Assembly: GCA_964471165.1 (NCBI GenBank)
Contig: CAYYEX010000002.1
Location: forward strand, 60,965-124,964
Direction: 5' to 3'
Length of the DNA stretch: 64,000 nucleotides
From: an uncultured Candidatus Saccharibacteria bacterium
GTDB taxonomy: Bacteria > Patescibacteriota > Minisyncoccia > Phycocordibacterales > UBA2100
Each line of letters begins with the position of its first letter. Position 1 is the first letter of the stretch. Under the pieces are notes generated by a model. The model had not been told where the DNA came from, ran no database searches, and saw only the letters and a list, made by a program, of their open reading frames with translations. The position numbers and the translations under genes were made by a program. Positions 1,019-63,845 of the stretch are shown here, one piece after another.

Positions 1019-1110
1019 GTAATTGAAGAGGGGAATATTGCTGGAGCGCTTAACTGCTGTATAATCCAGCCATTGCGGAGCGGCTTCGAAGGATGCCGTT
1101 TCGCTCGTGA

Positions 1111-1145
1111 GTACATAATGCGGATATGGCTTCGGTGGATGATAC
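1111..1145 (+). repeat. pseudo-copy of the 5' part of tRNA-Gly (gtacataatgcggatatgg... repeated at 1176-1194 where it starts the real tRNA)
   Basis: 19-nt identical direct repeat 1111-1129 vs 1176-1194, followed by a diverged D-arm-like sequence; seen by eye. Confidence 0.6.
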
Positions 1146-1184
1146 TTTGCCACCAGTCATGAGAGAGTAGGGGAAGTACATAAT

Positions 1185-1255
1185 GCGGATATGGTTTAGT
1201 GGTAGAACACGTCCTTGCCAAGGACGGGATCGGGGTTCGATTCCCCGTATCCGCA
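1185..1255 (+). tRNA. tRNA-Gly (anticodon GCC), CCA not encoded
   Basis: cloverleaf folded by hand: acceptor GCGGATA/TATCCGC, D-arm, anticodon stem CGTCC/GGACG with loop TTGCCAA, T-arm GGGGTTCGATTCCCC, discriminator A. Confidence 0.85.
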
Positions 1256-1258
1256 CAT

Positions 1259-1298
1259 GAAATACAAAAGGGGCGCGACAAGCGCCCCTTTTGTATTT
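1259..1298 (+). terminator. long perfect hairpin (aaatacaaaaggggcgcg-acaa-cgcgccccttttgtattt) with T-run: intrinsic terminator after tRNA-Gly
   Basis: 18-bp perfect inverted repeat with GC-rich core followed by TTTTG. Confidence 0.75.
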
Positions 1299-1301
1299 CA
1301 G

Positions 1302-1428
1302 GCGAGAGGAGGGGAATCGAAGGCGAGCACTGGGGCCCCGTCAGAAGACGGGGATGTGCGAGCAGGGCCGAGCGGAGAAATGTTCTGACGAGAACATTTC
1401 GAGCGCTTGGCCGCTTCCCCATATCCGC
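1302..1428 (+). ncRNA. tRNA-linked structured element, copy 1 (unnamed family)
   Basis: 5' end GGGGAATCGAA = reverse complement of the tRNA-Gly T-arm; 3' end TTCCCCATATCCGC repeats the tRNA-Gly 3' end (13/14 identical); conserved hairpin CCCCGTC-AGAA-GACGGGG; GACG-loop hairpin AAATGTTCT-GACG-AGAACATTT. Copies 2-4 share the architecture. Confidence 0.6.
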
Positions 1429-1541
1429 TTGACAGAGAACGTGCGACGGCAAAGCGAGAGGCGAGGGAGATTCCTCGTATTGGGCAGTAATCTGTCAGTC
1501 TCCACAAACAAAACAATCTTTGCGCGTGCTAAAATGCCGCA

Positions 1542-2294
1542 ATGCTTAAGGAATTGCAGGATATCGGTTTGTCGGAGAAGGAAGCACGAGTCTACTTGTC
1601 TGCACTCGAGCTCGGCCGCACAACAGCCGAAAAGCTCGCAAAACACGCCAAGGTCAATCGATCCACCACCTACGTGCAGATTGAGACACTCATGAAAAAG
1701 GGCCTCATGAGCACCTACGAGGAGGACAAGAAGACATACTTTGCTCCTGAGTCACCAGAACTCCTACGACGCTTCCTCACAAAACAAAAAGACGATCTCT
1801 CTGCACGCGAACGCGACCTGGCAGTCGTGCTACCCACACTCCTGCAGCAGTTTGATGGTGCAGGGGAGCGCCCCGTGGTGCGTTTTTTTCCAGGAAAAGA
1901 GGGAATCACTTCGGTTCGCGAGGAGATGCTCAACGTAAAAGATAAGCATATTTTTATCACGCTTACATACGAGCATCTTTCGAAGATTTATACGGAAAAG
2001 GAACTCGACGACTACTCTGACCGCAGAAAAGCCCTCGGCGTTCACTCTAAGGGAATCTACCTTCACAAGGAGTACTTCAGCAAGGCGGGGCTCGATAGCT
2101 TAACCGAGCGACGATTGTTGCCTCCTGACACGCTCCCACTCACCATAGATTTGTATATATACGACGACAAAACTGCAATTCTTTCTCTGCAGGGCACGTT
2201 GTTTGCGATGGTTGTACAAAGCGTACAAATCTCCTCGAGTATGCGCCTCATCTTCGACTTCTTGTGGGATAGGGCACAGGGACCAACTAAATAA
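1542..2294 (+). CDS. TrmB-family helix-turn-helix transcriptional regulator
   Basis: N-terminus LKELQDIGLSEKEARVYLSALELGRTTAEKLAKHAKVNRSTTYVQIETLMKKGL matches the TrmB HTH signature; 250 aa. Confidence 0.7.
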   Translation: MLKELQDIGLSEKEARVYLSALELGRTTAEKLAKHAKVNRSTTYVQIETLMKKGLMSTYEEDKKTYFAPESPELLRRFLTKQKDDLSARERDLAVVLPTLLQQFDGAGERPVVRFFPGKEGITSVREEMLNVKDKHIFITLTYEHLSKIYTEKELDDYSDRRKALGVHSKGIYLHKEYFSKAGLDSLTERRLLPPDTLPLTIDLYIYDDKTAILSLQGTLFAMVVQSVQISSSMRLIFDFLWDRAQGPTK

Positions 2295-2639
2295 AAAAGA
2301 GACCGGGGAAACTGCAAGCGTTAGCTCACAATTCCTCCGGCTCCATTGTCGTCCAATCGTCCAAGCAATTCTGCTTAGGCGGATGCGTTGACGCTCAGGT
2401 CAACGCGAAGTGGGCCTTGCAATCACCCACCGTCGCCGAAGCGCCTGTGCGTCTGGCCGACCTTCTTCACGGTCATTTTCGGGCGAAGCGGCATGTGAAT
2501 GCCGGTCTTGACGTCGGGCATGGTTCTCTCCATTGCCATGAAACCCCGGGGAAAGGGCAAGGGTAGACCCCTGAGCCACGCTCCACCAAAAAGTGCAGTG
2601 ATTCGTTGCCTACACAGGAGTATATTCCGTCAAAAGTTT

Positions 2640-2830
2640 CTGTCAATCATTGTATGTGTATAAGCTCATATTGCGATATACGATTGACATTCATTTATGT
2701 CAAATATGGCTCTATTTAGAGCCATATTTGGGTTTTCCACAGCATGTTTGTCAGCGTTCGTTGACAGAATATGCCGAGGGTATATATTGATTATGTTTAT
2801 GGAAGATAACATTACAAAGCGAAGAGAGAA
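2640..2830. promoter_or_regulatory. AT-rich regulatory region with several perfect palindromes (TTGACAT-n6-ATGTCAA; ATATGGCTCTA-tt-TAGAGCCATAT; TGTCAGCG-ttcg-TTGACAG)
   Basis: local GC drop; three operator-like inverted repeats within about 120 nt; possibly a small acidic ORF (2793-2933) downstream. Confidence 0.4.
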
Positions 2831-3224
2831 CATCATCGAGACGATGCGAACGCTGGTGCTCGCAGGGCAGATGCGCGGCGAGGAGCGGGACGAAAACGAT
2901 GATACGGATCTCCGTGGAGGGGACAGCGATTAAGAGAAAATCTGATTCTTATGAGCTATCTCAACCACAGTCCGCCAACGCTCGCAGAGAGATGTACCAG
3001 ATTTAACATAGAACCATGACAAAAAATCACAACAACGGACCACCAGCTTGAAAAAGAATCCTTATTAACCAAAACACATTTTCATGACTAACGCACAGGA
3101 CCACGCTCCGCCAGAGGAAAACGAGACGAGTCTAGAAGAGGAACAATTACTAGGGGATGGGGGCTAGCTAAAAATATTAAATGTATGGAACCCGTTATTG
3201 AACCGCCGTAGTGGTCGACAAGGC

Positions 3225-3296
3225 ACCGGGATAGCTTAGTGGGCAGAGCATCAAGTTCGGAACTTGAATGTGGAGGTTCGAATCCTTCTCCCGGAA
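3225..3296 (+). tRNA. tRNA-Pro (anticodon CGG), CCA not encoded; position 1:72 appears mismatched (A:A) so the exact 5' end is uncertain
   Basis: D-arm GCTT-AGTGGGCA-GAGC, anticodon stem TCAAG/CTTGA with loop TTCGGAA, T-arm GGAGGTTCGAATCCTTC, acceptor 3' TCCCGGA. Confidence 0.7.
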
Positions 3297-3347
3297 CTAC
3301 AAACAGTTGGGCCCTAACGCATTCGCGCTGGGGTCTTACTGTTTGTT

Positions 3348-3473
3348 TCTGGGAAAGGATTCGAAAGCGAACACTGGGGCCCCGTCAGCAGACGGGGATG
3401 TGTGAGCAGGGCCGAGAGAAGTTTTGATTCGACGGAATCAAAACGAGCTCTTGGCAGAATCCTTCTCCCGGAA
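3348..3473 (+). ncRNA. tRNA-linked structured element, copy 2
   Basis: 5' end CTGGGAAAGGATTCGAA approximates the reverse complement of the tRNA-Pro 3' end; 3' end GAATCCTTCTCCCGGAAC (3457-3474) is an 18/18 direct repeat of tRNA-Pro 3280-3297; hairpins CCCCGTC-AGCA-GACGGGG and TTTTGATTC-GACG-GAATCAAAA. Confidence 0.65.
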
Positions 3474-3483
3474 CAAACAAAGA

Positions 3484-3512
3484 ACGCCCAGGCACTGCCG
3501 TGGGCGTTTTTG
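3484..3512 (+). terminator. intrinsic terminator (CGCCCA..TGGGCG + TTTTTG) closing the tRNA-Pro/element unit
   Basis: GC-rich hairpin followed by a T-run. Confidence 0.6.
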
Positions 3513-3536
3513 CAGAAATCGCAGAGAACAGATTCT

Positions 3537-4121
3537 TCAGATTCGGCGATACCGAACGACACCGAGCTCCTTCCCGAACCGGGGTCCGATGGAACGCCAC
3601 AGTACGTCGATATTGGTTTCGATGCGCTGTTTGCGCTTTCCGACTGGGTCGACCAACGAAACAATGCGCTCCTCGGTGCGAAAGGTCTCCACGAGACTGT
3701 CGTGAATATGCTGATTCACGGGGTCTTCAGGATGAACCTCTTCGGAGTGATACTCGATTTGCAGGTCAAAGTCGAACCGAAGTGCCCCTTCCACCAGTTT
3801 TTGGAAATCGCTGATTTGTCTGAAACGAATGGCTTCGCCCTGGATACGGATGCGCCTACGCCGAAAGAAATTGTTGATTTCGGGCACAATGTCCATCGTC
3901 GAGACACCCAAGCTCTTAACGGCCGTCATAACGGCCATTTCAGATCTGAACGCTACAGCATTTTCAGCCGCAACACCGACTCCAATCGCTTTGGCGATGT
4001 CTTCTTGATCGATTAGGCCGTAGCCGTTGCGCTCGACAACCATCTGCACGCACGCTGCCGTACAGGCATTGGGCATCTGGACCAGACGTACGTATTTCCG
4101 ACCCACTGACAATGTAGTCAT
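3537..4121 (-). CDS. hypothetical protein with C39-like (papain-fold) cysteine-peptidase signature
   Basis: N-terminal LVQMPNACTAACVQMV fits the Q-x4-C-x-A-A...M pattern of C39 bacteriocin-processing peptidase domains; His-containing region downstream; 194 aa; inference from motif only. Confidence 0.4.
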   Translation of the reverse strand: MTTLSVGRKYVRLVQMPNACTAACVQMVVERNGYGLIDQEDIAKAIGVGVAAENAVAFRSEMAVMTAVKSLGVSTMDIVPEINNFFRRRRIRIQGEAIRFRQISDFQKLVEGALRFDFDLQIEYHSEEVHPEDPVNQHIHDSLVETFRTEERIVSLVDPVGKRKQRIETNIDVLWRSIGPRFGKELGVVRYRRI

Positions 4122-4286
4122 GTTCGTTCATACCCCCCGCCATGGATACTTTCTGTATAGTGCCGATTGTCCGGAAAATAGCAATAGAACACAAAAAAAG
4201 TTTGTCAATACTTTCTGACAGTTTGGCAGCCCAATTAGGCACGCGTTATAAAAAAACGAAGATGTAATGTAGTATTCCAAAGTTCT

Positions 4287-4358
4287 GCTCTCATAGTGAA
4301 ATGGATATCACGACAGTCTTCGGAACTGTTATTGGGGGTTCGAATCCCTCTGGGAGCA
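4287..4358 (+). tRNA. tRNA-Arg (anticodon TCG), CCA not encoded
   Basis: acceptor GCTCTCA/TGGGAGC (one G-T pair), D-arm GTGA-AATGGATA-TCAC, anticodon stem ACAGT/ACTGT with loop CTTCGGA, T-arm GGGGGTTCGAATCCCTC. Confidence 0.8.
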
Positions 4359-4404
4359 AAAAATTAACGAGGACAACGCGAAGCGTGGGACGACTATAAT
4401 TTTG

Positions 4405-4527
4405 TCGCTCCCAGAGGGATTCGAAGGCGAATCCTGGGGCCCTGTCACCAGACGGGGATGGATGAGTGTGGTCAGGCGGAGTTTTGGTTCGACGGAACCA
4501 AAACGAGCGCTTGACCGAATCCCGAGC
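4405..4527 (+). ncRNA. tRNA-linked structured element, copy 3 (immediately upstream of cca)
   Basis: 5' end GCTCCCAGAGGGATTCGAA (4407-4425) is the exact reverse complement (19/19) of the tRNA-Arg 3' end 4339-4357; hairpins CCCTGTC-ACCA-GACGGGG and TTTTGGTTC-GACG-GAACCAAAA; 3' end CGAATCCCGAG. Confidence 0.65.
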
Positions 4528-4589
4528 AATCTATGCTCATGGCCGAATCCGAAACACAGGAATCCCCAAATCGAAACAAAACAGTTACA

Positions 4590-6068
4590 ATGACCCACAT
4601 GAAAAAAGCGGACCTGGAGATTCCATCGGAAATCCGTGCGCTCCATAAAACTGTGAAAGACGCCGGGTATGAGGCATTCTTGGTAGGCGGATGCGTGCGT
4701 GACCTAATCATTGGTCGCGAACCAAAAGACTGGGACATCACCACAAATGCGACCCCCGAGCAGATTCAAGCACTGTTCGAGGAAACATTTTATGAAAACA
4801 GCTACGGGACGGTGGGTGTGGTTACCCAATCCGAAAACCCCAAGCTCAAGGTGGTAGAAATCACGCCATACCGCATCGAGGGCAAGTACAGCAATGCCCG
4901 TCATCCCGACGAAATTCGCTTTAGCGACAATCTACACGACGACCTTGAGCGTCGTGACTTTACGATAAACGCGATTGCCTACGACCCAGCGACAGGGGAG
5001 CTGGTGGACGAACACGGAGGCCGTGACGATATAGGGCGCAAAGTTCTTGTAACGGTGGGGGACGCGCACGCGCGATTTGAGGAAGATGCACTACGCATGC
5101 TGCGCGCCATCCGTATTGCCGCTGAGCTCGAATTTGCAATCGACGGCACAACCATGGTGGGCATTTCCGGAAACGCCGCCCAGCTTGAAAAGATTTCCAA
5201 GGAGCGTATCCGTGATGAATTCAGTCGCATTCTGCTCTCATCGACACCGCTCACAGCTATTTATATGGCTCAAAAGCTTGGCATTTTGAAGTATGTGATG
5301 CCGGAACTTGAAGCGGGTATTGGCTGTGACCAAAACCAGGCGCACTCGTTTGATGTGTTTGAACACCTTTTGCGGAGCTTGCAGCACGCGGCCGATGAGA
5401 ACTGGCCTCTCGATGTACGCCTTGCAGCCCTTTTGCACGATGTGGGCAAGCCGGCAACGCGTGAATGGTCAGAAGACAAGAAAGACTGGACGTTCCACGG
5501 ACACGACGTGGTTTCTGCCCGTATGGCCAAGAAAATCCTGACTGATTTGAAATATCCCAAAGATCTCATTGAGAAAGTCGTGCTGCTTATCCGATGGCAC
5601 ATGTTTTTCTCCGACCCGGACCTCATTACGCTCTCTGCGGTACGCCGACTCATTGCCCGAGTAGGACAGGAAAACATAGCCGACCTCCTGAACTTGCGCG
5701 TTTGCGACCGAATCGGCACCGGACGACCAAAGGCACACCCGTTCCGACTGCGTAAGTACATGTCGATGATAGACGAAGCGCTGCGTGACCCGGTTTCAGT
5801 GAGCATGCTTGCAGTAGATGGCAGCAGATTGATGGAAATCGGCGAGCCGGCTGGCCCGCGCATTGGTTGGATTCTTCATGCGCTTTTGGAAGAGGTTTTA
5901 GACGAACCAACTAAGAATACAGCCGTATATTTGGAGTCTCGAGCACAGGAAATGATGGCGATTGGGGATGAGGAATTGAAAACCCTAGGCGAGCAGGGGA
6001 AGGACCGCCGCGCAGCGGAAGATGAGGCCGCTATTGCTCTTCTACGCAAGAAGCACCACGTGTCGTAG
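4590..6068 (+). CDS. cca: CCA-adding enzyme (tRNA nucleotidyltransferase) with C-terminal HD domain
   Basis: GGCVRDLIIGREPKDWDITT nucleotidyltransferase motif; RFEEDALRMLRAIR; HD motif LLHDVGK; start taken at MTHMKK (the ORF track begins 19 codons earlier at 4533). Confidence 0.85.
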   Translation: MTHMKKADLEIPSEIRALHKTVKDAGYEAFLVGGCVRDLIIGREPKDWDITTNATPEQIQALFEETFYENSYGTVGVVTQSENPKLKVVEITPYRIEGKYSNARHPDEIRFSDNLHDDLERRDFTINAIAYDPATGELVDEHGGRDDIGRKVLVTVGDAHARFEEDALRMLRAIRIAAELEFAIDGTTMVGISGNAAQLEKISKERIRDEFSRILLSSTPLTAIYMAQKLGILKYVMPELEAGIGCDQNQAHSFDVFEHLLRSLQHAADENWPLDVRLAALLHDVGKPATREWSEDKKDWTFHGHDVVSARMAKKILTDLKYPKDLIEKVVLLIRWHMFFSDPDLITLSAVRRLIARVGQENIADLLNLRVCDRIGTGRPKAHPFRLRKYMSMIDEALRDPVSVSMLAVDGSRLMEIGEPAGPRIGWILHALLEEVLDEPTKNTAVYLESRAQEMMAIGDEELKTLGEQGKDRRAAEDEAAIALLRKKHHVS

Positions 6069-6473
6069 TTCCCCGACCTCTTTCGCTTTTCGCCGTCGCG
6101 AAAAGACATATGAAAAGCCCCGTCCTCGCGGATAGGGGCTTTCAAAGTAAAAAGGCCGACAGACGTAGCAACCCAATTTCTCTCTAATTTGGATTGCCGC
6201 CGTCTGGCGGCCTTCTCTTTGGTCTCGTTCATTCTTTAAAGAACTACGAAATCGTTTTTGGACAAAGTACTTTGCTTTCAATGAGTGCGGAGGCACCCTT
6301 TATATTTTGGCGTTATACATTTGTACCTATATATTTCGTTTATTTTAGAATCAACGAAAACCTGACAAAGAACCGCAGTCCGTAGAATAGCGTCGATAAC
6401 GGACAACGTAAAGGACACCCCTGTGGATAACTATATGAGTGTCCGATATAAAGGACAGCAGCACCGTAGAGGG

Positions 6474-7271
6474 CTAGATATCAAGCTCTAGTGTCACCGG
6501 GCAATGGTCGGAGCCCATAACGTCGGCATGGATTTTTACACGGGAGACAAGCGGAACGAGTGATTCGCTCACAAAGAAATAGTCTATGCGCCATCCCACG
6601 TTTCGCTCACGTGCGTTCGAAAAATGACTCCACCACGTGTAGTGTCCTTTACCCTGAGTTTGAATGCGAAACGCATCAACAAACCCCGCAGCAATCATGG
6701 CGTCGATGCCAGAGCGCTCCTCGAGGGTAAAACCTTTTTTGCCTTCATTGGGTTTTGGGTTGGCGAGGTCGTCCAGAGTATGGGCCACATTCAAGTCTCC
6801 GCAGAATATAACGGGCTTCGTTTTCTCGAGATGTTTCATGTACTCGAGAAACGCCGGGTCCCAGTTTTTGTGACGTAGGGGAATGCGGCTCAGGTCGTCC
6901 TTTGAGTTTGGAGTGTATACCGTCACAAAGTGGAAATCGTCATATTCGGCAGCCACAATACGGCCCTCGTTGTTCGGGTCGCCATATTTATCTACAAAAT
7001 CGTATTTTGCACAGATATCCGCAGGGAAGTCATATGAAACTTCGATTGGGGAGGGTTTGGTAAAGATAGCAGTGCCCGAATAGCCCTTCTTAGTCTTGGA
7101 CGAGTTCCAAAACTCCTCGTAATCCGGAAGGTCTACCAGAGATTGGTGCTGTTCAGCCTTCGTTTCCTGGAAACCAACGATGTCGGGGTTTTCTTTATCG
7201 AAAAATGGTGTGAGTAAACCCCTCTTATGAACGTTGCGTATCCCGTTTATATTCCAGGTGGCCAGTTTCAT
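6474..7271 (-). CDS. xth: exodeoxyribonuclease III / AP endonuclease (EEP family)
   Basis: MKLATWNINGIR N-terminus; GDLNVAHT and SDHCPV motifs typical of the ExoIII family. Confidence 0.8.
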   Translation of the reverse strand: MKLATWNINGIRNVHKRGLLTPFFDKENPDIVGFQETKAEQHQSLVDLPDYEEFWNSSKTKKGYSGTAIFTKPSPIEVSYDFPADICAKYDFVDKYGDPNNEGRIVAAEYDDFHFVTVYTPNSKDDLSRIPLRHKNWDPAFLEYMKHLEKTKPVIFCGDLNVAHTLDDLANPKPNEGKKGFTLEERSGIDAMIAAGFVDAFRIQTQGKGHYTWWSHFSNARERNVGWRIDYFFVSESLVPLVSRVKIHADVMGSDHCPVTLELDI

Positions 7272-7697: not shown

Positions 7698-8606
7698 TTA
7701 TCGCCGTCGTTTGCCGTGAAATGCTTTGTGCACGTCGCGAAGATGGGAGTCGGTAACATGCGTGTATACCTGAGTGGTTGCAATATTCGCGTGTCCAAGC
7801 AGCGCTTGAACGGAACGCAGGTCTGCGCCGTTGGAAAGCAAATCAGTAGCAAACGAGTGGCGAATAACGTGCGGTGTAACCTTGCGCGTGATGCCGGCTT
7901 TCATTGCGTAATTTTTTACGAGCCGCTCAACAGAGCGGGGAGTGAGCCGTGAGAGATCCTTTGTCTTACGCGCTTTACTGTAGCCGACAAAAAGCGCTTC
8001 GCCAAAATCTCCACGCTTTTTCAAATATGCCGCGACTGCTTTTTTTGCTTCATCTGAAAGAAATACCACGCGCACCTTTTCGCCCTTACCGCGCACAGAA
8101 AACTCGTCACGCGTTAAATCGAGGTCTTGATTCAAGTTGCACAGTTCGGATACACGCAGCCCTGTTGAAAAGAGGAGCTCGAGAATCGCACGGTCACGCA
8201 ACGCCGAAAGCGAATCGCCCGTCGGCCCTTTCATCAAGCGCTCAAGCTCGGCCGAGGTAATTAAGTCGAGGTCGCGACCGCCCACTTTGGCAAGCTCAAT
8301 GCGCTCTGGATTCAGACTCACCACGTCGCGCTTGCGAAGAAATTTTAAGAACGCGCGTAATGCGATGAGGTGATAATTCTGCGTATTCTTTTTCATCGTG
8401 CCACTGGTGCCAGCAGAGCGATTGAGTGCAATGCGGAATTCACGCACCATCTGCTCGGTAACAGCGCCTGGATTCTTCACTTTTGCGAAATCAAAGAATC
8501 GTTTCAGGTATCGGTCGTAATTCTCAACCGTTTTTACCCCGCGACCTTTTTCGATTTCGAGATATTCGAGGAACTGTGTTTTCAGGAGTCCGAGGTCCGT
8601 TGCCAT
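7698..8606 (-). CDS. tyrosine site-specific recombinase, XerC/XerD type
   Basis: C-terminal HVIRHSFATDLLSNGADLRSVQALLGHANIATTQVYTHV catalytic motif (R..HxxR..Y); 302 aa. Confidence 0.8.
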   Translation of the reverse strand: MATDLGLLKTQFLEYLEIEKGRGVKTVENYDRYLKRFFDFAKVKNPGAVTEQMVREFRIALNRSAGTSGTMKKNTQNYHLIALRAFLKFLRKRDVVSLNPERIELAKVGGRDLDLITSAELERLMKGPTGDSLSALRDRAILELLFSTGLRVSELCNLNQDLDLTRDEFSVRGKGEKVRVVFLSDEAKKAVAAYLKKRGDFGEALFVGYSKARKTKDLSRLTPRSVERLVKNYAMKAGITRKVTPHVIRHSFATDLLSNGADLRSVQALLGHANIATTQVYTHVTDSHLRDVHKAFHGKRRR

Positions 8607-27499: not shown

Positions 27500-27622
27500 G
27501 TGGGTGACTTTTTTATTGGCTCGGTCACAGATATTTTTATTGCCGTCGCAATAAAAATTCTCTGACCACGCCTCGCGGTCCCGCAAGCTTGCGGGACATC
27601 GCTCCGGCCGAGTAGTCTAAAG

Positions 27623-27649
27623 AAAAAGGATGCGCAGGCATCCTTTTTC
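27623..27649. terminator. bidirectional intrinsic terminator AAAAAGGATGC-gcag-GCATCCTTTTT
   Basis: perfect hairpin flanked by A-run and T-run between convergent genes. Confidence 0.75.
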
Positions 27650-27989
27650 ATTGACTACTCCCCATCATCGTAATGGAGATTCCAGCGTAGACGATAATCG
27701 GTACGATAGAGACGAGGCAGTAGTATGGAGCACCATACAGGCCCAGTAGGTATTGTCCGGTATGCGCCGGTGGACCGAATGGATACGTTACGGTTGACGG
27801 CGTCCAGATGTAAATACCACCCACCGGCGGGCCGACCGTGGTCCAAATCGCCTGGTTGTAGCAGAAAATAATCTGCGTAATAGGGCCGCCGAACGGATTC
27901 GTTTGCGCAACGGCAGCGGTCGGTGCCAAAAGAAGGAGTACACCCGCGAGCATTCCTGCGATTGTGCGCATACGTACAGTATACGACAT
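27648..27989 (-). CDS. small exported protein, VirB2/TrbC-pilin-like candidate
   Basis: signal peptide MSYTVRMRTIAGMLAGVLLLLAPTAAVAQ then about 85 aa with two hydrophobic segments and two Cys; start uncertain (27989 or 27971). Confidence 0.4.
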   Translation of the reverse strand: MSYTVRMRTIAGMLAGVLLLLAPTAAVAQTNPFGGPITQIIFCYNQAIWTTVGPPVGGIYIWTPSTVTYPFGPPAHTGQYLLGLYGAPYYCLVSIVPIIVYAGISITMMGSSQ

Positions 27990-42767: not shown

Positions 42768-44126
42768 ATGAAATATATGATGACTAACCGTGAATTATGG
42801 CAAAACGCACTTGTTCAAATTGAACTTGGTACCACAGAAGCATCGTTTCGAACTTGGTTTCGTAACACCGACATCTCTCATCGCGATGGGGGAACTGTCC
42901 AGGTTGCTGTTCCGTCCAAAATAGTAAAGGAGTGGCTCTCTGACAAGCATCACAAGTTGATTCTCAAGGCGCTTCGCAGCCTCGATAGCTCTATTCGCAC
43001 AGTGGAATACGTTGTGCACCGCACCGCACCGCAAACTGACCGCAAACCACAGAAACAAGAGCCGCAGCAAAATGCATCGTTCGACTTACAGTCGCTCTAT
43101 ATAGACAAGCGCGACAACCTCAATCCGCGCTACACCTTCGAAACGTTTGTAGTGGGCCCGTTCAATCAACTCGCTCATGCCGCTGCAAAGGCAGTGCTCG
43201 AGCGCCCGGGTCTCGCGTACAACCCACTCTTTATCTATGGCTCCACTGGTCATGGAAAGACGCATCTTATCCAGGCTATTGGAAACTATTTCAAGAAGTC
43301 GCACGCGAACAAAAAGGTGCTTTATGTAACGAGTGAACGCTTTGCAATTGACTACATCAATGCAGTTCGTGCAGGACACGCAAACAATTTCAAAGACCAG
43401 TACCGGCAGTACGACGTACTTATAATGGACGACGTACAGTTTATTGCGAACACGGAGAAGACCCAGGAAGAGCTCTTCCACCTCTTCAACGCGCTTCGTG
43501 ATAACAATAAACAGATTGTATTCTCGTCCGATAAGCACCCAGCACTCCTCCCCGGCTTTGAAGACCGTCTCAAGGGCCGCTTCTCAGGCGGCATGATTGC
43601 GGAAATCCCTGAACCCGACGTTGAAAGCCGTACGGCCATAATTTCGGCGAAGATTGAGCAACATGGATTTTCTATCCCCGACGACATCATTCAGTACATC
43701 GCTGAAAACGTGAGGGGCAACATTCGTGAACTCGAGGGCGTGCTCAATATGATTGTTTGTAAGTCTCAGTTGAAGGGAAAGGCTATTTCCCACGCAGACG
43801 TACGTGCACTCATTAAGCACAATGTGAAGCCAAATCGCGGGGTTTCTATCGATGAAGTCGTGCGCCGTATTGCGCAATATTACGAAGTACCGGAAAAGAG
43901 TATCTACGAAAAGACTCGTAAGAAGGAGGTCGTAAAGCCACGACAAATAATCATGTATGTACTTCGTGAAGAATTCGCTGTTTCGTACCCATCAATTGGG
44001 GAGAAGCTTGGTGGTCGTGACCACACGACCGTTATTCACTCGTGCGAAAAAATCAAGGAAGAAATGAAAACATCCAGTTCACTCGAACAGGAGCTTGATC
44101 ACATTCGCGCACTCATTCACGCCTAG
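42768..44126 (+). CDS. dnaA: chromosomal replication initiator DnaA
   Basis: 452 aa; Walker A GSTGHGKTHL; box VII; C-terminal domain IV ...GGRDHTTVIHSCEKI... Confidence 0.9.
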   Translation: MKYMMTNRELWQNALVQIELGTTEASFRTWFRNTDISHRDGGTVQVAVPSKIVKEWLSDKHHKLILKALRSLDSSIRTVEYVVHRTAPQTDRKPQKQEPQQNASFDLQSLYIDKRDNLNPRYTFETFVVGPFNQLAHAAAKAVLERPGLAYNPLFIYGSTGHGKTHLIQAIGNYFKKSHANKKVLYVTSERFAIDYINAVRAGHANNFKDQYRQYDVLIMDDVQFIANTEKTQEELFHLFNALRDNNKQIVFSSDKHPALLPGFEDRLKGRFSGGMIAEIPEPDVESRTAIISAKIEQHGFSIPDDIIQYIAENVRGNIRELEGVLNMIVCKSQLKGKAISHADVRALIKHNVKPNRGVSIDEVVRRIAQYYEVPEKSIYEKTRKKEVVKPRQIIMYVLREEFAVSYPSIGEKLGGRDHTTVIHSCEKIKEEMKTSSSLEQELDHIRALIHA

Positions 44127-60247: not shown

Positions 60248-61906
60248 ATGACTGCTGTGCTGTTCATTACATTGTTTCTCATTGTTGTTCCGCTCGTGAC
60301 TCTTGGACAAGAAGGTAATGCAATGTGTGTACCATCAATTCCCCCATGTGGTTGTGGCAAGATTCTCAAAGATAACAAGTGTGTTGGGGGTACTAATAAG
60401 CTCGGTTGTTCGTGTCAGGAGACGGAGAATGGTTTTACCGCTTCGGGCATTTGTGTTGTTGGTAGCATTTGTAAAACGACTGGCACGAGCGATGGCAAAG
60501 GCCCAGATCAAGGAATGGCAAAGCTCGGCGAAATCCTCGGCAAGTTGATGGAGGCCCTCAAGGGCAAGGATGGTGGAGGTGGTTCGCCCACATCTCCAAC
60601 CGACCAAAACTGCACAACAATGTCGCCGACGAGCGATAAGCAGCTCGCGATGACGAACCCAATGTGTTACTACCTCGACCCGAATGCCACGGACCCGAAT
60701 GCAACCGACCCCTCCGGCGGACTCGTCGCCTCACCAACAGAGGGGCCGGCACCGCTCACTGTGTATTTTGCATTCACCAACGGTACTGTGGGATGCAAAA
60801 CACCGACCCTCGTACTTGATTTTGGCGACGGTAAAACCGAGCAGCAGCAAATCCACTCAGAAACCACGTGCAGTGGCCTGTCTGAAACGACGCAGCACAT
60901 ATACACCACAGCGGGTGCATATTCTGCACGCCTCAAGAATGCATCAACCGACGAAGTCCGTGGTGGCGTAAATCTTACGGTTTCAGAAGGGGATGCAACT
61001 CCAACTCCCGATGATACTGCAACGACAGCCGGCACAAACACGGGCGGCACAAACACAAATATTCAAACGAACGGAAACGCCACGAACCTCGGCGCCACAC
61101 AGTTCACTACTCCGCTCACGAATTTGGGCACTACTGGCACTGTAAAAACGGGAACCACCGGCGGCTCAAATTCAGTAACAGGGAGTTATTCCACAGGAGG
61201 GAGCGTATCAACTGGCGGGTCCAACTTTGGAAACCCGGGAGCAACACTCAATTTCAATACGCCGCAGTCCATTGTGCAGAGCATCATTCAGAAAAATCTG
61301 CCACCCGGTGCATACGGCGACGTAAAGATTCTCGAAAACGGGACCACAATCATTGCCGGTGTCCGCGACAACAACTCTGAAGTGGTTGGATTTTACGGAA
61401 CCAATAGCAAATCTGGTGGGGTCGGAGCAGTTTCCCGATTGTGCACGAACCGACCATGGGCAAGCAATTTCTTGTCATACATTATTCCGCCGTCGTTCTT
61501 TGATTCTCTGTGTACATGGCGCGGGTACACGCCGGGAACGCCACAAAAGGCACCAGTATCGACCAATCCAACTACTGTGGGCACTAAACCTGCCACAGTG
61601 AAAACGACGGTCGGCGGTAAGGCAGCAACGACCACTAAACCGGTAGTCGCTCCGGAAACAGCAAAGGTGGATATTTGGGCTTCGCCACTCGTTGTGCCGC
61701 TTGGTGCACGAACCTCAATCTTTTGGAGTTCACAGGGGGTGAGCGAGTGCGTTGAAACGTCACCAGACGGCAGCTTTACGCATGCCTCGCTCAAGGGAGG
61801 TGCTTCTACAGTGCCGCTCACTGCAGACACAACATTTACGATTTCGTGCATTACGCCAAACGGTGTACATCTCACCAAGGATGTAGTGGTGAAGATGGCT
61901 CTCTAG
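60248..61906 (+). CDS. secreted Cys-rich protein with PKD-like domain and Thr/Gly-rich repeats
   Basis: ATG 60248 preceded by AAAGGAGG; signal peptide MTAVLFITLFLIVVPLVTLG; LTVYFAFTNG...LVLDFGDGKTEQ PKD-like motif; TGT-rich low complexity. Confidence 0.55.
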   Translation: MTAVLFITLFLIVVPLVTLGQEGNAMCVPSIPPCGCGKILKDNKCVGGTNKLGCSCQETENGFTASGICVVGSICKTTGTSDGKGPDQGMAKLGEILGKLMEALKGKDGGGGSPTSPTDQNCTTMSPTSDKQLAMTNPMCYYLDPNATDPNATDPSGGLVASPTEGPAPLTVYFAFTNGTVGCKTPTLVLDFGDGKTEQQQIHSETTCSGLSETTQHIYTTAGAYSARLKNASTDEVRGGVNLTVSEGDATPTPDDTATTAGTNTGGTNTNIQTNGNATNLGATQFTTPLTNLGTTGTVKTGTTGGSNSVTGSYSTGGSVSTGGSNFGNPGATLNFNTPQSIVQSIIQKNLPPGAYGDVKILENGTTIIAGVRDNNSEVVGFYGTNSKSGGVGAVSRLCTNRPWASNFLSYIIPPSFFDSLCTWRGYTPGTPQKAPVSTNPTTVGTKPATVKTTVGGKAATTTKPVVAPETAKVDIWASPLVVPLGARTSIFWSSQGVSECVETSPDGSFTHASLKGGASTVPLTADTTFTISCITPNGVHLTKDVVVKMAL

Positions 61907-63131: not shown

Positions 63132-63192
63132 GGAAAAACTTTAGCATGGGCACTCGCTCACTCCTCAAGGGAATGCTATATTTTCGACACTT

Positions 63193-63265
63193 GCGCTCAT
63201 AGCTCAGTTGGTAGAGCAGCTCCCTTTTAAGGAGACGGTCCCAGGTTCGAATCCTGGTGGGCGCA
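63193..63265 (+). tRNA. tRNA-Lys (anticodon TTT), CCA not encoded
   Basis: acceptor GCGCTCA/TGGGCGC, D-arm GCTC-AGTTGGTA-GAGC, anticodon loop CTTTTAA, T-arm CCAGGTTCGAATCCTGG; one G:A mismatch at 27:43. Confidence 0.8.
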
Positions 63266-63278
63266 CACGAATCACAAA

Positions 63279-63300
63279 CGGCACGAAAGTGCCGTTTTGT
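63279..63300 (+). terminator. intrinsic terminator ACGGCAC-gaaa-GTGCCGT + TTTGTGTTT
   Basis: hairpin plus T-rich tail directly after tRNA-Lys. Confidence 0.6.
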
Positions 63301-63342
63301 GTTTACGAGTGAGCCCACAGCAATGTGCCTGCGCACATTGCG

Positions 63343-63449
63343 TCAGGATTCGAACGCCGCAGCGGGGTCCCGTGCAGCAGCACGGGTCGCGAGGCGGTGC
63401 CCAGACAAATCTGAGCGGCGGCGAGGATTTAGTCGAGGGAGAATCCTGG
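63343..63449 (+). ncRNA. tRNA-linked structured element, copy 4 (more diverged)
   Basis: 5' CAGGATTCGAAC = reverse complement (12/13) of the tRNA-Lys T-arm; hairpin CCCGTGC-AGCA-GCACGGG equivalent to the CCCCGTC-AGCA-GACGGGG of copies 1-3; 3' end GAATCCTGG repeats the tRNA-Lys T-arm 3' half. Confidence 0.5.
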
Positions 63450-63452
63450 TTC

Positions 63453-63845
63453 TTACAACCGCCACGAGCCACCAACTTTGCGGGGGGTCTTCGCGGCTGC
63501 AGCTTTTGAGCGATGGTTCCATTTATCCATCACCACCGTGTACACCGCAAAAAACGTCCACGCAGGGAGCACGTCGAGTATCGGCATGAACTCTATAACC
63601 GCCCCAAACGTGTACGACGGTGCGCGGCGCTTGAGTATTCCGCCGCCGTGGTGATGGAGCATGATTGCCATACCTATCATCGCCACAAAATTGAGTACGG
63701 GGGCAAGTAAAATCCCAATGACCAAAATTGCCAGAAGCATCTGGATAAAATCAATCATGACGCCCAATGTAATAAGCCCGAAGGCTAATCCTGCCCCGAT
63801 AGGTTTCGAATCGTCCATACGGCTAGAGCGGAAGGTCGAACGCAA
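63453..63845 (-). CDS. hypothetical polytopic membrane protein
   Basis: 130 aa; three hydrophobic helices; HHHGGG patch. Confidence 0.4.
   Translation of the reverse strand: MRSTFRSSRMDDSKPIGAGLAFGLITLGVMIDFIQMLLAILVIGILLAPVLNFVAMIGMAIMLHHHGGGILKRRAPSYTFGAVIEFMPILDVLPAWTFFAVYTVVMDKWNHRSKAAAAKTPRKVGGSWRL

Follow-up and report, generated by a model that had tools for sequence, protein, structure and literature searches.

A previously undescribed structured RNA element behind tRNA-Lys(UUU) and other tRNA genes of Candidatus Kaiserbacteria carries two arms derived from the neighbouring tRNA

We analysed a stretch of 64,000 nucleotides (nt), which we call the window (contig CAYYEX010000002.1 of GenBank assembly GCA_964471165.1, forward strand, positions 60,965 to 124,964), with a focus on the region directly 3' of its tRNA-Lys(UUU) gene. 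This region holds an element of ~140 nt (63309-63450, + strand), which lies 3' of the tRNA and of a terminator hairpin and belongs to a previously undescribed family that is not in Rfam 15. Members of this family form a structured RNA on the tRNA strand, folded as a three-way junction, and both of the arms that enclose the junction derive from the local tRNA. We give an even chance to the explanation that the family is a small, non-autonomous mobile element of Candidatus Kaiserbacteria (Patescibacteria, also known as the candidate phyla radiation, CPR) that lacks an open reading frame (ORF), targets the 3' ends of tRNA genes and has a folded RNA as its functional form.

The tRNA-Lys(UUU) gene (63193-63266, + strand), called by ARAGORN with the anticodon ttt and scoring 70 bits against the Rfam tRNA model, is intact and does not encode its CCA end. 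It is followed by a terminator-like hairpin (HP; 63268-63307, + strand), the imperfect outer stem of which extends into the tRNA end and the core stem of which, AAACGGCAC-GAAA-GTGCCGTTT at 63276-63297, is GC-rich, precedes a T-run and was called as a terminator in our terminator scan. An earlier note on this DNA had described this order of tRNA-Lys(TTT), terminator hairpin and element, and the ARAGORN, Rfam and hairpin results bear it out. The hairpins of the other three tRNA-linked copies in the window fell outside the terminator criteria of the scan, yet T-rich tracts follow them. All parts of the Lys element are on the + strand, and the source of both arms is nt 54-76 of tRNA-Lys. The 5' arm is bipartite and consists of an anti-acceptor segment, a hairpin with a CTGC loop and an anti-T-arm segment. 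The first part, GTGAGCCCAC (63309-63318), agrees at 9 of 10 positions with the antisense of the acceptor 3' strand and discriminator (GTGGGCGCAC) and folds onto the tRNA 3' end; the small hairpin GCAATGTGC-CTGC-GCACATTGC (63320-63341), an inverted repeat, sits exactly at the junction between acceptor and T-stem; and the second part, TCAGGATTCGAA (63343-63354), is antisense to the T-stem 3' strand and T-loop (nt 54-65; 12/12 complementary) and, in our folds, pairs with the 3' arm to close the junction as helix P1. As the earlier note had proposed, the 5' end is thus the reverse complement of the Lys T-arm, the match being 100% over the 12 nt of CAGGATTCGAAC (63344-63355) and GTTCGAATCCTG (63245-63256). 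The core comprises P2 (63355-63399; from folds and alignment to a covariance model, R1, described below), with an outer helix CGCCGC/GCGGTG, a tandem purine internal loop, a bulge containing GGGG and the hairpin CCCGTGC-AGCA-GCACGGG at 63369-63386, which the earlier note had singled out, and P3 (63400-63439; from folds and alignment), a long hairpin whose tip GCGGCGGC is a variant of the conserved C-GACG-G tip. The 3' arm, which we also call the T arm, is GAATCCTGGT (63441-63450), a direct copy of tRNA nt 57-66; the 10 nt GAATCCTGG(T) at these positions repeat tRNA-Lys 63249-63258 exactly, in agreement with the rule of the earlier note that the ends match the local tRNA. This arm spans only T-loop and T-stem, the acceptor portion being missing, and the cognate tRNA ranks first of 23 for it. 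The split 5' arm, the 3' arm without acceptor part and a fifth, tRNA-free copy in the window had escaped the earlier note. We also observed an inverted repeat of 13 nt (63156-63168 and 63302-63314; 85% complementary) between the 5' leader of tRNA-Lys and the stretch that precedes the antisense arm, which is possibly due to chance.

The Lys copy is homologous to, though diverged from, the copies at 1.3, 3.3 and 4.4 kb of the window. We built the covariance model R1 from an alignment of 10 type-A copies from the window and related contigs, with the Lys copy excluded, and this model matched the Lys element over its full length (63330-63462; 40.9 bits, E=5.9e-9), while the three upstream copies scored 132-143 bits; the claim that the Lys copy is a diverged fourth member therefore stands. 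As the control, we used 40 unrelated loci from GC-rich genomes with a similar short hairpin, in which R1 found no full-length match and only local hairpin matches (E>0.04). Folding of the Lys region gives the same three-way junction (z=-5.6 to -6.4 compared with dinucleotide shuffles), in which the tRNA-derived arms form P1, P2 contains an inner hairpin of 7 bp with an ANNA loop, and P3 is long.

The structure of the family is supported by covariation, for which the earlier note had suggested aligning all copies. RNAalifold applied to the 10 copies gave 38 pairs, 21 of them with compensatory changes. Across 20 distinct copies, 92.1% of the cells form standard pairs, compared with 35-46% when the 3' partners are slid by 1-3 columns, changes on both sides are seen in 34 of the 38 pairs, and none of 500 shuffles reached any of the observed measures; the 20-copy alignment was fitted to the model, which favours the structure, and an independent MAFFT alignment agrees with it. 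The + strand folds better than the - strand by 12-15 kcal/mol in all four tRNA-linked copies of the window, and a G.U pair in P3 is kept in 12 of 20 copies. The core runs in the order GAA, P2 (tandem G.A loop, GGGG bulge) and P3 (C-GACG-G tip); the tandem G.A motif GAG[stem]CGA recurs in the leading hairpin, P2 and P3, and the C-GACG-G tip is common to several subtypes. The unit measures ~130-180 nt with the leading hairpin and contains no ORF. Further, a single long hairpin of ~35-43 bp, trailer nt included, arises in every case from the tRNA 3' end, the leading hairpin and the antisense arm. The notion of a closing helix in the earlier note thus holds for P1, which the arms form, but is incomplete, as it leaves out this long hairpin. 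Copies with a hairpin at the acceptor/T-stem junction of the 5' arm were designated type B, and the split lies at this exact junction at tRNA-Lys, at tRNA-Arg(gcg) beyond the window end, at tRNA-Gly(gcc) of the related loci L135 and L147 and at tRNA-Gly(tcc) of L142; several type-A copies have at the same place a 1-nt deletion (Pro, Leu, Met) or a mismatch (Tyr). The CTGC-loop hairpin is found also in L135, L147, L142, L151, L155 and the window copy at 27.6 kb.

Both arms derive from the local tRNA, as we established by aligning the arms of 17 tRNA-linked copies to 23 distinct tRNA 3' ends. The cognate tRNA was the best match for the 3' arm in 17/17 copies and for the 5' arm in 13/17, with rank 2-4 in the rest, at the identities Gly(gcc), Gly(tcc), Pro(cgg), Arg(tcg), Arg(gcg), Lys, Tyr, Leu and Met; Asp and Pro(tgg) were added by eye. 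In the best-preserved copies the 3' arm is a direct copy of tRNA nt 57-76 and 1-5 trailer nt. The left edge of the direct repeat is fixed at T-loop nt 57 in essentially every copy and the right edge varies, lying 1-5 nt beyond the discriminator; the exact repeats measure 18 nt at Pro, Tyr and Leu, 15 nt at Asp and 18 nt at Met, where the repeat starts inside the T-stem. The 5' arm is the Watson-Crick antisense of local tRNA nt 54-76 and 1-2 trailer nt, reaching 19-21 nt in the L128 Gly copy and, in most of five genomes, at tRNA-Arg(tcg), and the Arg antisense arm tracks a T/C substitution of the tRNA between orthologues (CCCTCTGGG in the window, CCCTCCGGG in L135). T-loop nt 57-60 are base-paired within P1. 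A 12-bp stack of acceptor and T-stem with the authentic 3' strand and discriminator is present in the Pro, Tyr, Leu, Met, Asp and L142 Gly(tcc) copies and absent from the Lys copy, all Arg copies and the L128 Gly copy. The rule that the ends match the local tRNA, proposed in the earlier note, is upheld by these counts for tRNA-linked copies with T-arm-derived ends and does not extend to the tRNA-free copies or to the Lys variants of relatives L151 and L155; copies without such ends are the window copy at 27.5 kb, the L123 orphan and the Lys loci of these two relatives. Segmental duplication of one locus, which the earlier note had doubted, cannot explain the matching of so many tRNA identities.

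Two other origins of the 5' arm were considered and rejected. It is not a copy of the tRNA 5' strands, as the arm (GGATTCGAA, GGGGAATCGAA or CCGGATTTGAA) is antisense to the local T-loop, and at Pro it has AAGG opposite CCTT, unlike the GGAGG of the tRNA itself. Nor is it a primer-binding site of the retroviral type, as it complements genomic trailer nt and not the added CCA, with the exception of L155, where CCA is encoded by the gene. We note that the 3' CCA is gene-encoded in some tRNAs of the relatives (L135 9737-9811, L155 5437-5512) and in none of the window's four. The mirrored arm of L155 has TGG opposite the encoded CCA, and we therefore conclude that the arm copies the gene or the primary transcript and not the CCA-tailed mature tRNA.

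ARAGORN found four tRNA genes in the window, all on the + strand and all confirmed by Rfam, namely Gly(gcc) (1185-1256), Pro(cgg) (3225-3297), Arg(tcg) (4286-4359) and the Lys(ttt) gene described above, and, as the earlier note had it, R1 detected an element at each of the four. The copy at tRNA-Gly(gcc) (1257-1434, + strand; R1 141.9 bits) consists of a perfect terminator hairpin (1258-1300) and a type-A element, and directly after it lies a 5'-truncated type-B remnant (1443-1487, + strand) with the P3 3' half and a decayed T arm; over its first 31 nt this remnant shows no difference from the 3' end of the complete type-B element that relative L147 carries behind its own tRNA-Gly(gcc). The copy at tRNA-Pro(cgg) (3298-3478, + strand; R1 143 bits) repeats the last 18 nt of the tRNA gene exactly and in direct orientation (3280-3297 and 3457-3474), and its T arm is followed by a second terminator (3480-3511), as expected if the element had inserted between the tRNA and its original terminator. 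The copy at tRNA-Arg(tcg) (4360-4538, + strand; R1 131.9 bits) has a T arm with an internal deletion and a 5' arm that is complementary to the tRNA end at 23 of 25 positions (4339-4363 and 4401-4425), and a remnant of an older copy (4535-4550, + strand; P3 3' strand and GAATCC) comes after it, seen as a direct repeat of 4507-4522 and 4535-4550. A fifth window copy has no tRNA linkage (27502-27665 with its hairpin, - strand; R1 match 27502-27625, 39.4 bits, E=1.6e-8) and would escape any search guided by tRNAs. It stands directly behind the stop codon of an ORF of 113 amino acids (27648-27989, minus strand) without Pfam match and consists of a CTGC-loop terminator hairpin with mirrored flanks (GAGTAGTC and GACTACTC) and the three-way-junction core; its P1 is CTCGG/CCGAG, and it holds neither TTCGAA nor T-loop sequence. 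About 7 kb past the window end, tRNA-Arg(gcg) carries a type-B-like copy (L130 1231-1369, minus strand; 74 bits), followed by a second P3 and T-arm remnant. In 83 kb of the contig, a metagenomic contig of 298 kb (ENA ERZ27247837 k141_321895) that carries chromosomal genes such as dnaA, dnaN, polA and PNPase, we thus counted six copies, five of them at tRNAs.

The presence of an element at every tRNA, as in the window, does not hold beyond it. Five of the seven tRNAs in the 83 kb carry one; tRNA-Gly(tcc) and tRNA-Pro(tgg), 0.85-2.5 kb upstream of the window start on the same contig, are without it, as are Trp, Thr (two genes), His and Pro(tgg) on other contigs and all four tRNAs examined in one related Kaiserbacteria lineage (L136-L141). 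To obtain relatives, we retrieved syntenic loci via protein homologues, and we retrieved element-bearing loci from JGI metagenomes via a verified pattern of the core, which has 3 matches in the window compared with 0 expected by chance and which returned 8 loci, 7 of them real. The homologues of the CCA-adding enzyme are named as Candidatus Kaiserbacteria, Paceibacterota or Patescibacteria. The content of the tRNA-Gly(gcc) locus differs from relative to relative: the window has type A, L135 and L147 have type B, L150 has type C proximally and type A distally, L142 has a different variant and L136 has no element. The orthologous tRNA-Lys loci of L151 and L155 hold two tandem units of another variant, in which only the last 6-8 nt of the tRNA are mirrored. 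Leading-hairpin subtypes are common to different tRNAs and unlike between orthologous tRNAs. An element is kept between tRNA-Arg(tcg) and the gene for the CCA-adding enzyme in six genomes.

Insertion at these loci is serial, with new copies next to the tRNA and older ones pushed downstream and decaying. Behind tRNA-Gly(gcc) of L150 (9396-9750) stand two complete tandem elements of different subtype, the proximal of which has the better arms and the distal of which is the orthologue of the window Gly copy, with the same hairpin; from this order and orthology it follows that new copies arrive on the tRNA-proximal side. Older copies, such as the distal L150 copy and the window Gly copy, lose their arms, and remnants with the P3 3' half and a decayed T arm trail full copies at window Gly, window Arg, L127, L125, L130 and L142. 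In L146 (426-649), ~90 nt are nested in the P2 bulge of a tRNA-Arg element; the insert resembles a miniature core module. A further observation concerns L135, where a bare, coreless 31-nt duplicate of the 3' part of tRNA-Pro(tgg) lies at ~7229-7260, 40 nt past the tRNA, and may be a classic integrase-type scar or an emptied element site.

The same contig offers additional observations. A 23-nt direct repeat (1110-1132 and 1175-1197; 96% identical, 65 nt apart) covers 10 nt of 5' flank and the first 13 nt of tRNA-Gly(gcc), so that the 5' end of this tRNA is also partly duplicated upstream. The tRNA-Gly(gcc) and tRNA-Arg(tcg) genes are only a few hundred nt apart in L128, L135, L147 and L150, which indicates that the ~2.8-kb segment between them in the window (~1490-4280), which is flanked by elements and holds a gene for a TrmB-family regulator (1542-2294), tRNA-Pro(cgg) with its element and an ORF of 194 amino acids (3537-4121, minus strand) without Pfam match, is a lineage-specific insertion. 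An isolated hairpin CTTTTCGC-GACG-GCGAAAAG (6085-6112, minus strand), like the conserved P3 tip, lies between the gene for the CCA-adding enzyme and an exonuclease III-like gene, with no further element parts recognisable around it. Finally, a cluster of conjugation or type IV secretion-like genes (~34.6-40.6 kb; PrgI, TraC-like, VirB4/TraG-type ATPase and a protein resembling a type IV secretion system pilin) is located a few kb from yidC, dnaA (42768-44126) and dnaN.

Our searches did not assign the element to any described family. At gathering score, Rfam 15 found only tRNAs in the 64 kb, and at E<=10 it gave no match covering an element in 1100-4600 of the window, with hammerhead, twister, pistol, hatchet, HDV-like, group I/II intron, tmRNA, 6S and Y RNA models included. 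By eye, too, the core does not fit a hammerhead, as it has no CUGA and has GAGC in place of GAAA. Neither ARAGORN nor the Rfam tRNA model called the element as a tRNA. In IMG/VR, the type-A pattern had no matches and the type-B/D pattern gave 115 chance loci, 80 of which were examined with R1 without yielding a real copy, the best match being in coding sequence with no tRNA near; blastn against INPHARED phages gave no match. No description of the element was found in the searchable full-text literature. The architecture differs from that of TIGR-Tas arrays (PMC12045711) and of the group I introns in Patescibacteria tRNAs (10.1101/2025.07.03.662931). A miniature inverted-repeat transposable element (MITE) was rejected as well, given that the arms differ per locus and match the local tRNA and that the direct repeat, of 10-18+ nt, varies in where it ends on the right. 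The unknown ORFs next to copies encode no transposase, reverse transcriptase or nuclease according to Pfam, and in a test for retrons and diversity-generating retroelements no reverse transcriptase adjoined any copy, the neighbours being TrmB, the CCA-adding enzyme, PAP2 and unknown small ORFs. Between the repeats, the insert of ~170 nt is free of ORFs and contains no integrase or cargo gene. No promoter was found between tRNA and element at Lys or at the other window copies.

The reading of the family as a mobile element rests on its being multi-copy, free of ORFs and subject to fast turnover, with serial, tandem, nested and truncated copies, together with a covarying, strand-specific RNA fold. 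The element would be read through from the tRNA promoter, no other promoter having been found in between. Its sense-strand 3' arm could then pair with the bottom strand where a tRNA gene has been opened between T-loop nt 56 and 57, and an enzyme supplied in trans may copy the element in by a target-primed, retroelement-like process that would leave the tRNA 3' end duplicated. Annealing and copying-in of this kind would account for a repeat whose left edge is fixed and whose right edge varies, and for the 5' truncation of most remnants. Subsequently, the antisense arm would be kept, or made, complementary to the local tRNA, perhaps through template switching across HP or repair templated by the hairpin, for which the palindromic TTCGAA could be the return anchor. 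We regard this specific route of retro-insertion as considerably less probable than the reading as a mobile element in general. That the element represents a new prokaryotic class of mobile RNA, which rebuilds its closing helix from the tRNA behind which it lands, is a tentative proposal that we think rather improbable, and we are equally doubtful whether the target-templated arms reflect a categorically new mechanism. The order target(+), hairpin, target(-), ribo-structured core and target(+) could be that of a linearised dumbbell, a viroid-like single-stranded circle with the tRNA 3' end as its stem, or that of a self-primed, target-templated copying product. Retargeting might then proceed by templating, without any protein encoded by the element, perhaps with a ribozyme or RNA-guided activity of the three-way junction.

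Several observations weigh against mobility or against the proposed route. No reverse transcriptase, transposase, IS110-type or TnpB-type gene was detected by Pfam in the 83 kb or in the 20-kb loci of the relatives, and the sole gene of the integrase family, Xer-like and located at 7698-8606 of the window, is syntenic in all relatives, the element-free lineage included. No strain-level pair of filled and empty alleles was found, and the insertion boundaries are therefore inferred. Six remnants consist of the P3 3' half and T arm, compared with one, at L128 Gly, that is a 5' part (3'-truncated), and deletion could also yield remnants of the former kind. An apparent trade-off, in which a near-perfect antisense arm goes with a decayed sense arm and vice versa (rho=-0.66, p=0.005, 16 copies), loses significance when the orthologous Arg copies are collapsed (p=0.2). 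In type-B copies at five different tRNAs, the hairpin persists at the exact point where acceptor and T-stem meet; plain fold-back copying would remove it, and its retention looks like selection for a tRNA-like shape. Likewise, compensatory changes between copies at the same locus could mean selection on the RNA at the level of the host.

According to the first of four rival explanations, the element is a non-coding RNA useful to the host. It would be carried on tRNA transcripts, its closing helix would mimic the acceptor/T-stem stack of the neighbour, and it would be cut out by RNase P and RNase Z, perhaps tailed with CCA, to act as a tRNA-specific decoy, sponge or regulator, for example of a tRNA-binding enzyme or a tRNA-cleaving toxin. 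We consider this unlikely. The strong covariation would fit such a role, as would the discriminator kept in full-length T arms, the irregularity of the helix exactly at the acceptor/T-stem junction (deletion, mismatch or, in five type-B copies, hairpin) and the retention of an element between tRNA-Arg(tcg) and the gene for the CCA-adding enzyme in six genomes, but the distribution is patchy and unlike between close relatives, one lineage having none at four tRNAs, and arms are lost in the older copies (L150 distal, window Gly). Further, the Arg copies, in which no minihelix forms, and the Lys copy lack the acceptor part of the T arm, the T-loop is paired into P1 and not displayed as a loop, the orphans and the variants at the Lys loci are without a tRNA-derived P1, and a housekeeping RNA would not be expected to occur as tandem, nested and truncated copies. 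A DNA-level integrative mini-element is more improbable still. Here the arms, in single-stranded form, would pair as a duplex resembling the tRNA gene's 3' end, and a host tyrosine recombinase would integrate it in the manner of Campbell, duplicating the tRNA 3' end. The layout is exactly that expected of a circle T-HP-A'-core (T arm, hairpin, antisense arm and core) integrating at T, the extrahelical bases and mismatches in the arm helix are like those that give attC sites their strand selectivity, and both the Xer-like integrase gene at 7698-8606 and the tRNA-proximal position of new copies would accord with this explanation. The G.U pairs, tandem G.A motifs, tips of the tetraloop type and far better folding of the + strand, however, indicate RNA; the integrase gene is just as syntenic in the lineage without elements; retargeting to about ten tRNAs would need joint change of both arms; and 5'-truncated remnants are not predicted.

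The remaining two rivals were weighed in the same manner. The element might serve as guide RNA to a recombinase or nuclease whose gene lies elsewhere, with the core as a putative protein scaffold, the arms addressing both strands of the tRNA gene end and GTTC of the T-loop as a candidate adjacent motif. An arrangement of scaffold and 3' guide, with the guide identical to the tRNA sequence after GGTTC, would be in keeping with this proposal, and so would the presence of the target in both orientations, a feature of dual-strand guides (TIGR-Tas, PMC12045711), and the recurrent tandem G.A (kink-like) motifs, which often bind protein. Nevertheless, there is no candidate effector gene beside ~30 copies or within the 83 kb, the arms are paired together and not shown in loops, both cover one target segment and not adjacent halves, and no array organisation is seen; we judge a guide role very improbable. 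Leftovers of ordinary attachment (att) sites of prophages or integrative elements, or of chance or segmental duplication, are effectively refuted. Direct repeats of a tRNA 3' end are the classic scar of integrase-mediated insertion, and the bare 31-nt partial duplicate of tRNA-Pro(tgg) in L135 could be counted in favour of this view, but one covarying core with locus-specific arms stands at >10 tRNA identities, the unit of only ~170 nt comes with no integrase and no cargo, R1 gave no full-length match in the 40 control loci and the core pattern was observed three times with none expected.

The element shares single features with each of the known systems compared and, for every one that was open to testing, lacks at least one of the features that define it. 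Like integrative elements that target tRNAs, it inserts at the 3' part of the gene, leaves the tRNA intact and a direct repeat behind, and new arrivals displace older ones from the tRNA; unlike them, it measures ~170 nt, has no integrase or cargo, places one covarying RNA core at many tRNAs and contains an internal antisense copy of the target. With site-specific retroelements without long terminal repeats (LTRs) and short interspersed nuclear elements (SINEs), such as R2 in 28S rDNA, it would have in common co-transcription with the host gene and an RNA whose ends carry host sequence able to pair with the target, together with a direct repeat in which one edge varies and, putatively, copies truncated at the 5' end and derivatives that are non-autonomous. 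Those elements are eukaryotic, whereas here no reverse transcriptase was found in the 83 kb or at the relatives' loci, and the antisense arm is without counterpart. We know of no bacterial SINE-like element of this kind. Folded single-stranded DNA sites (integron attC; the CTX phage attP used with XerCD) resemble it in the duplex of sense and antisense strands that imitates the target, in bulged stem bases and in that a host recombinase could suffice, but theirs are hairpins of single-stranded DNA without a conserved three-way junction, in contrast to the G.U pairs, tandem G.A motifs and strand asymmetry seen here. MITEs and the repetitive REP/BIME sequences are likewise short, free of ORFs, multi-copy and hairpin-forming and often lie behind genes and beside terminators; all copies of a MITE share identical terminal inverted repeats, whereas the arms here vary by locus with the neighbouring tRNA. 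A partial resemblance to the tRNA-like handles of tmRNA, YrlA, mascRNA and viral tRNA-like structures lies in the P1 of class-2 and type-B copies, which reproduces the stack of acceptor and T-stem with authentic 3' strand and discriminator; the differences are that the T-loop is paired, that there is no mimic of D arm or anticodon, that the adjacent tRNA specifically is mimicked and that the acceptor part is missing in many copies. TIGR and bridge RNAs address both DNA strands. A structured scaffold combined with target-matching segments is shared with such RNA-guided systems (IS110 bridge RNA, TnpB omega/reRNA and IscB omega RNA, TIGR-Tas tigRNA), unlike which the element has no associated protein gene or arrays and its guides, of 15-21 nt, are paired together and match the same target segment. 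TIGR-Tas systems are present in CPR bacteria (PMC12045711).

Overall, we conclude that tRNA-Lys(UUU) is followed by a diverged member of a structured, tRNA-linked element family. The genomes of CPR bacteria (Patescibacteria) are small and streamlined, and yet six copies occupy 83 kb of this one, five of them at tRNAs. Through these elements, the 3' ends of tRNA genes can be recognised as turnover hot spots in such genomes, and the partial tRNA copies that the elements carry could mislead annotation. For RNA biologists, the family provides a new motif with conserved tandem G.A loops, a GGGG bulge and a C-GACG-G tip. It also raises the question of how a 130-nt element without an ORF gains target-matching arms at about ten tRNA genes, the answer to which could reveal a new mechanism of insertion or retargeting, potentially useful for programmable integration.

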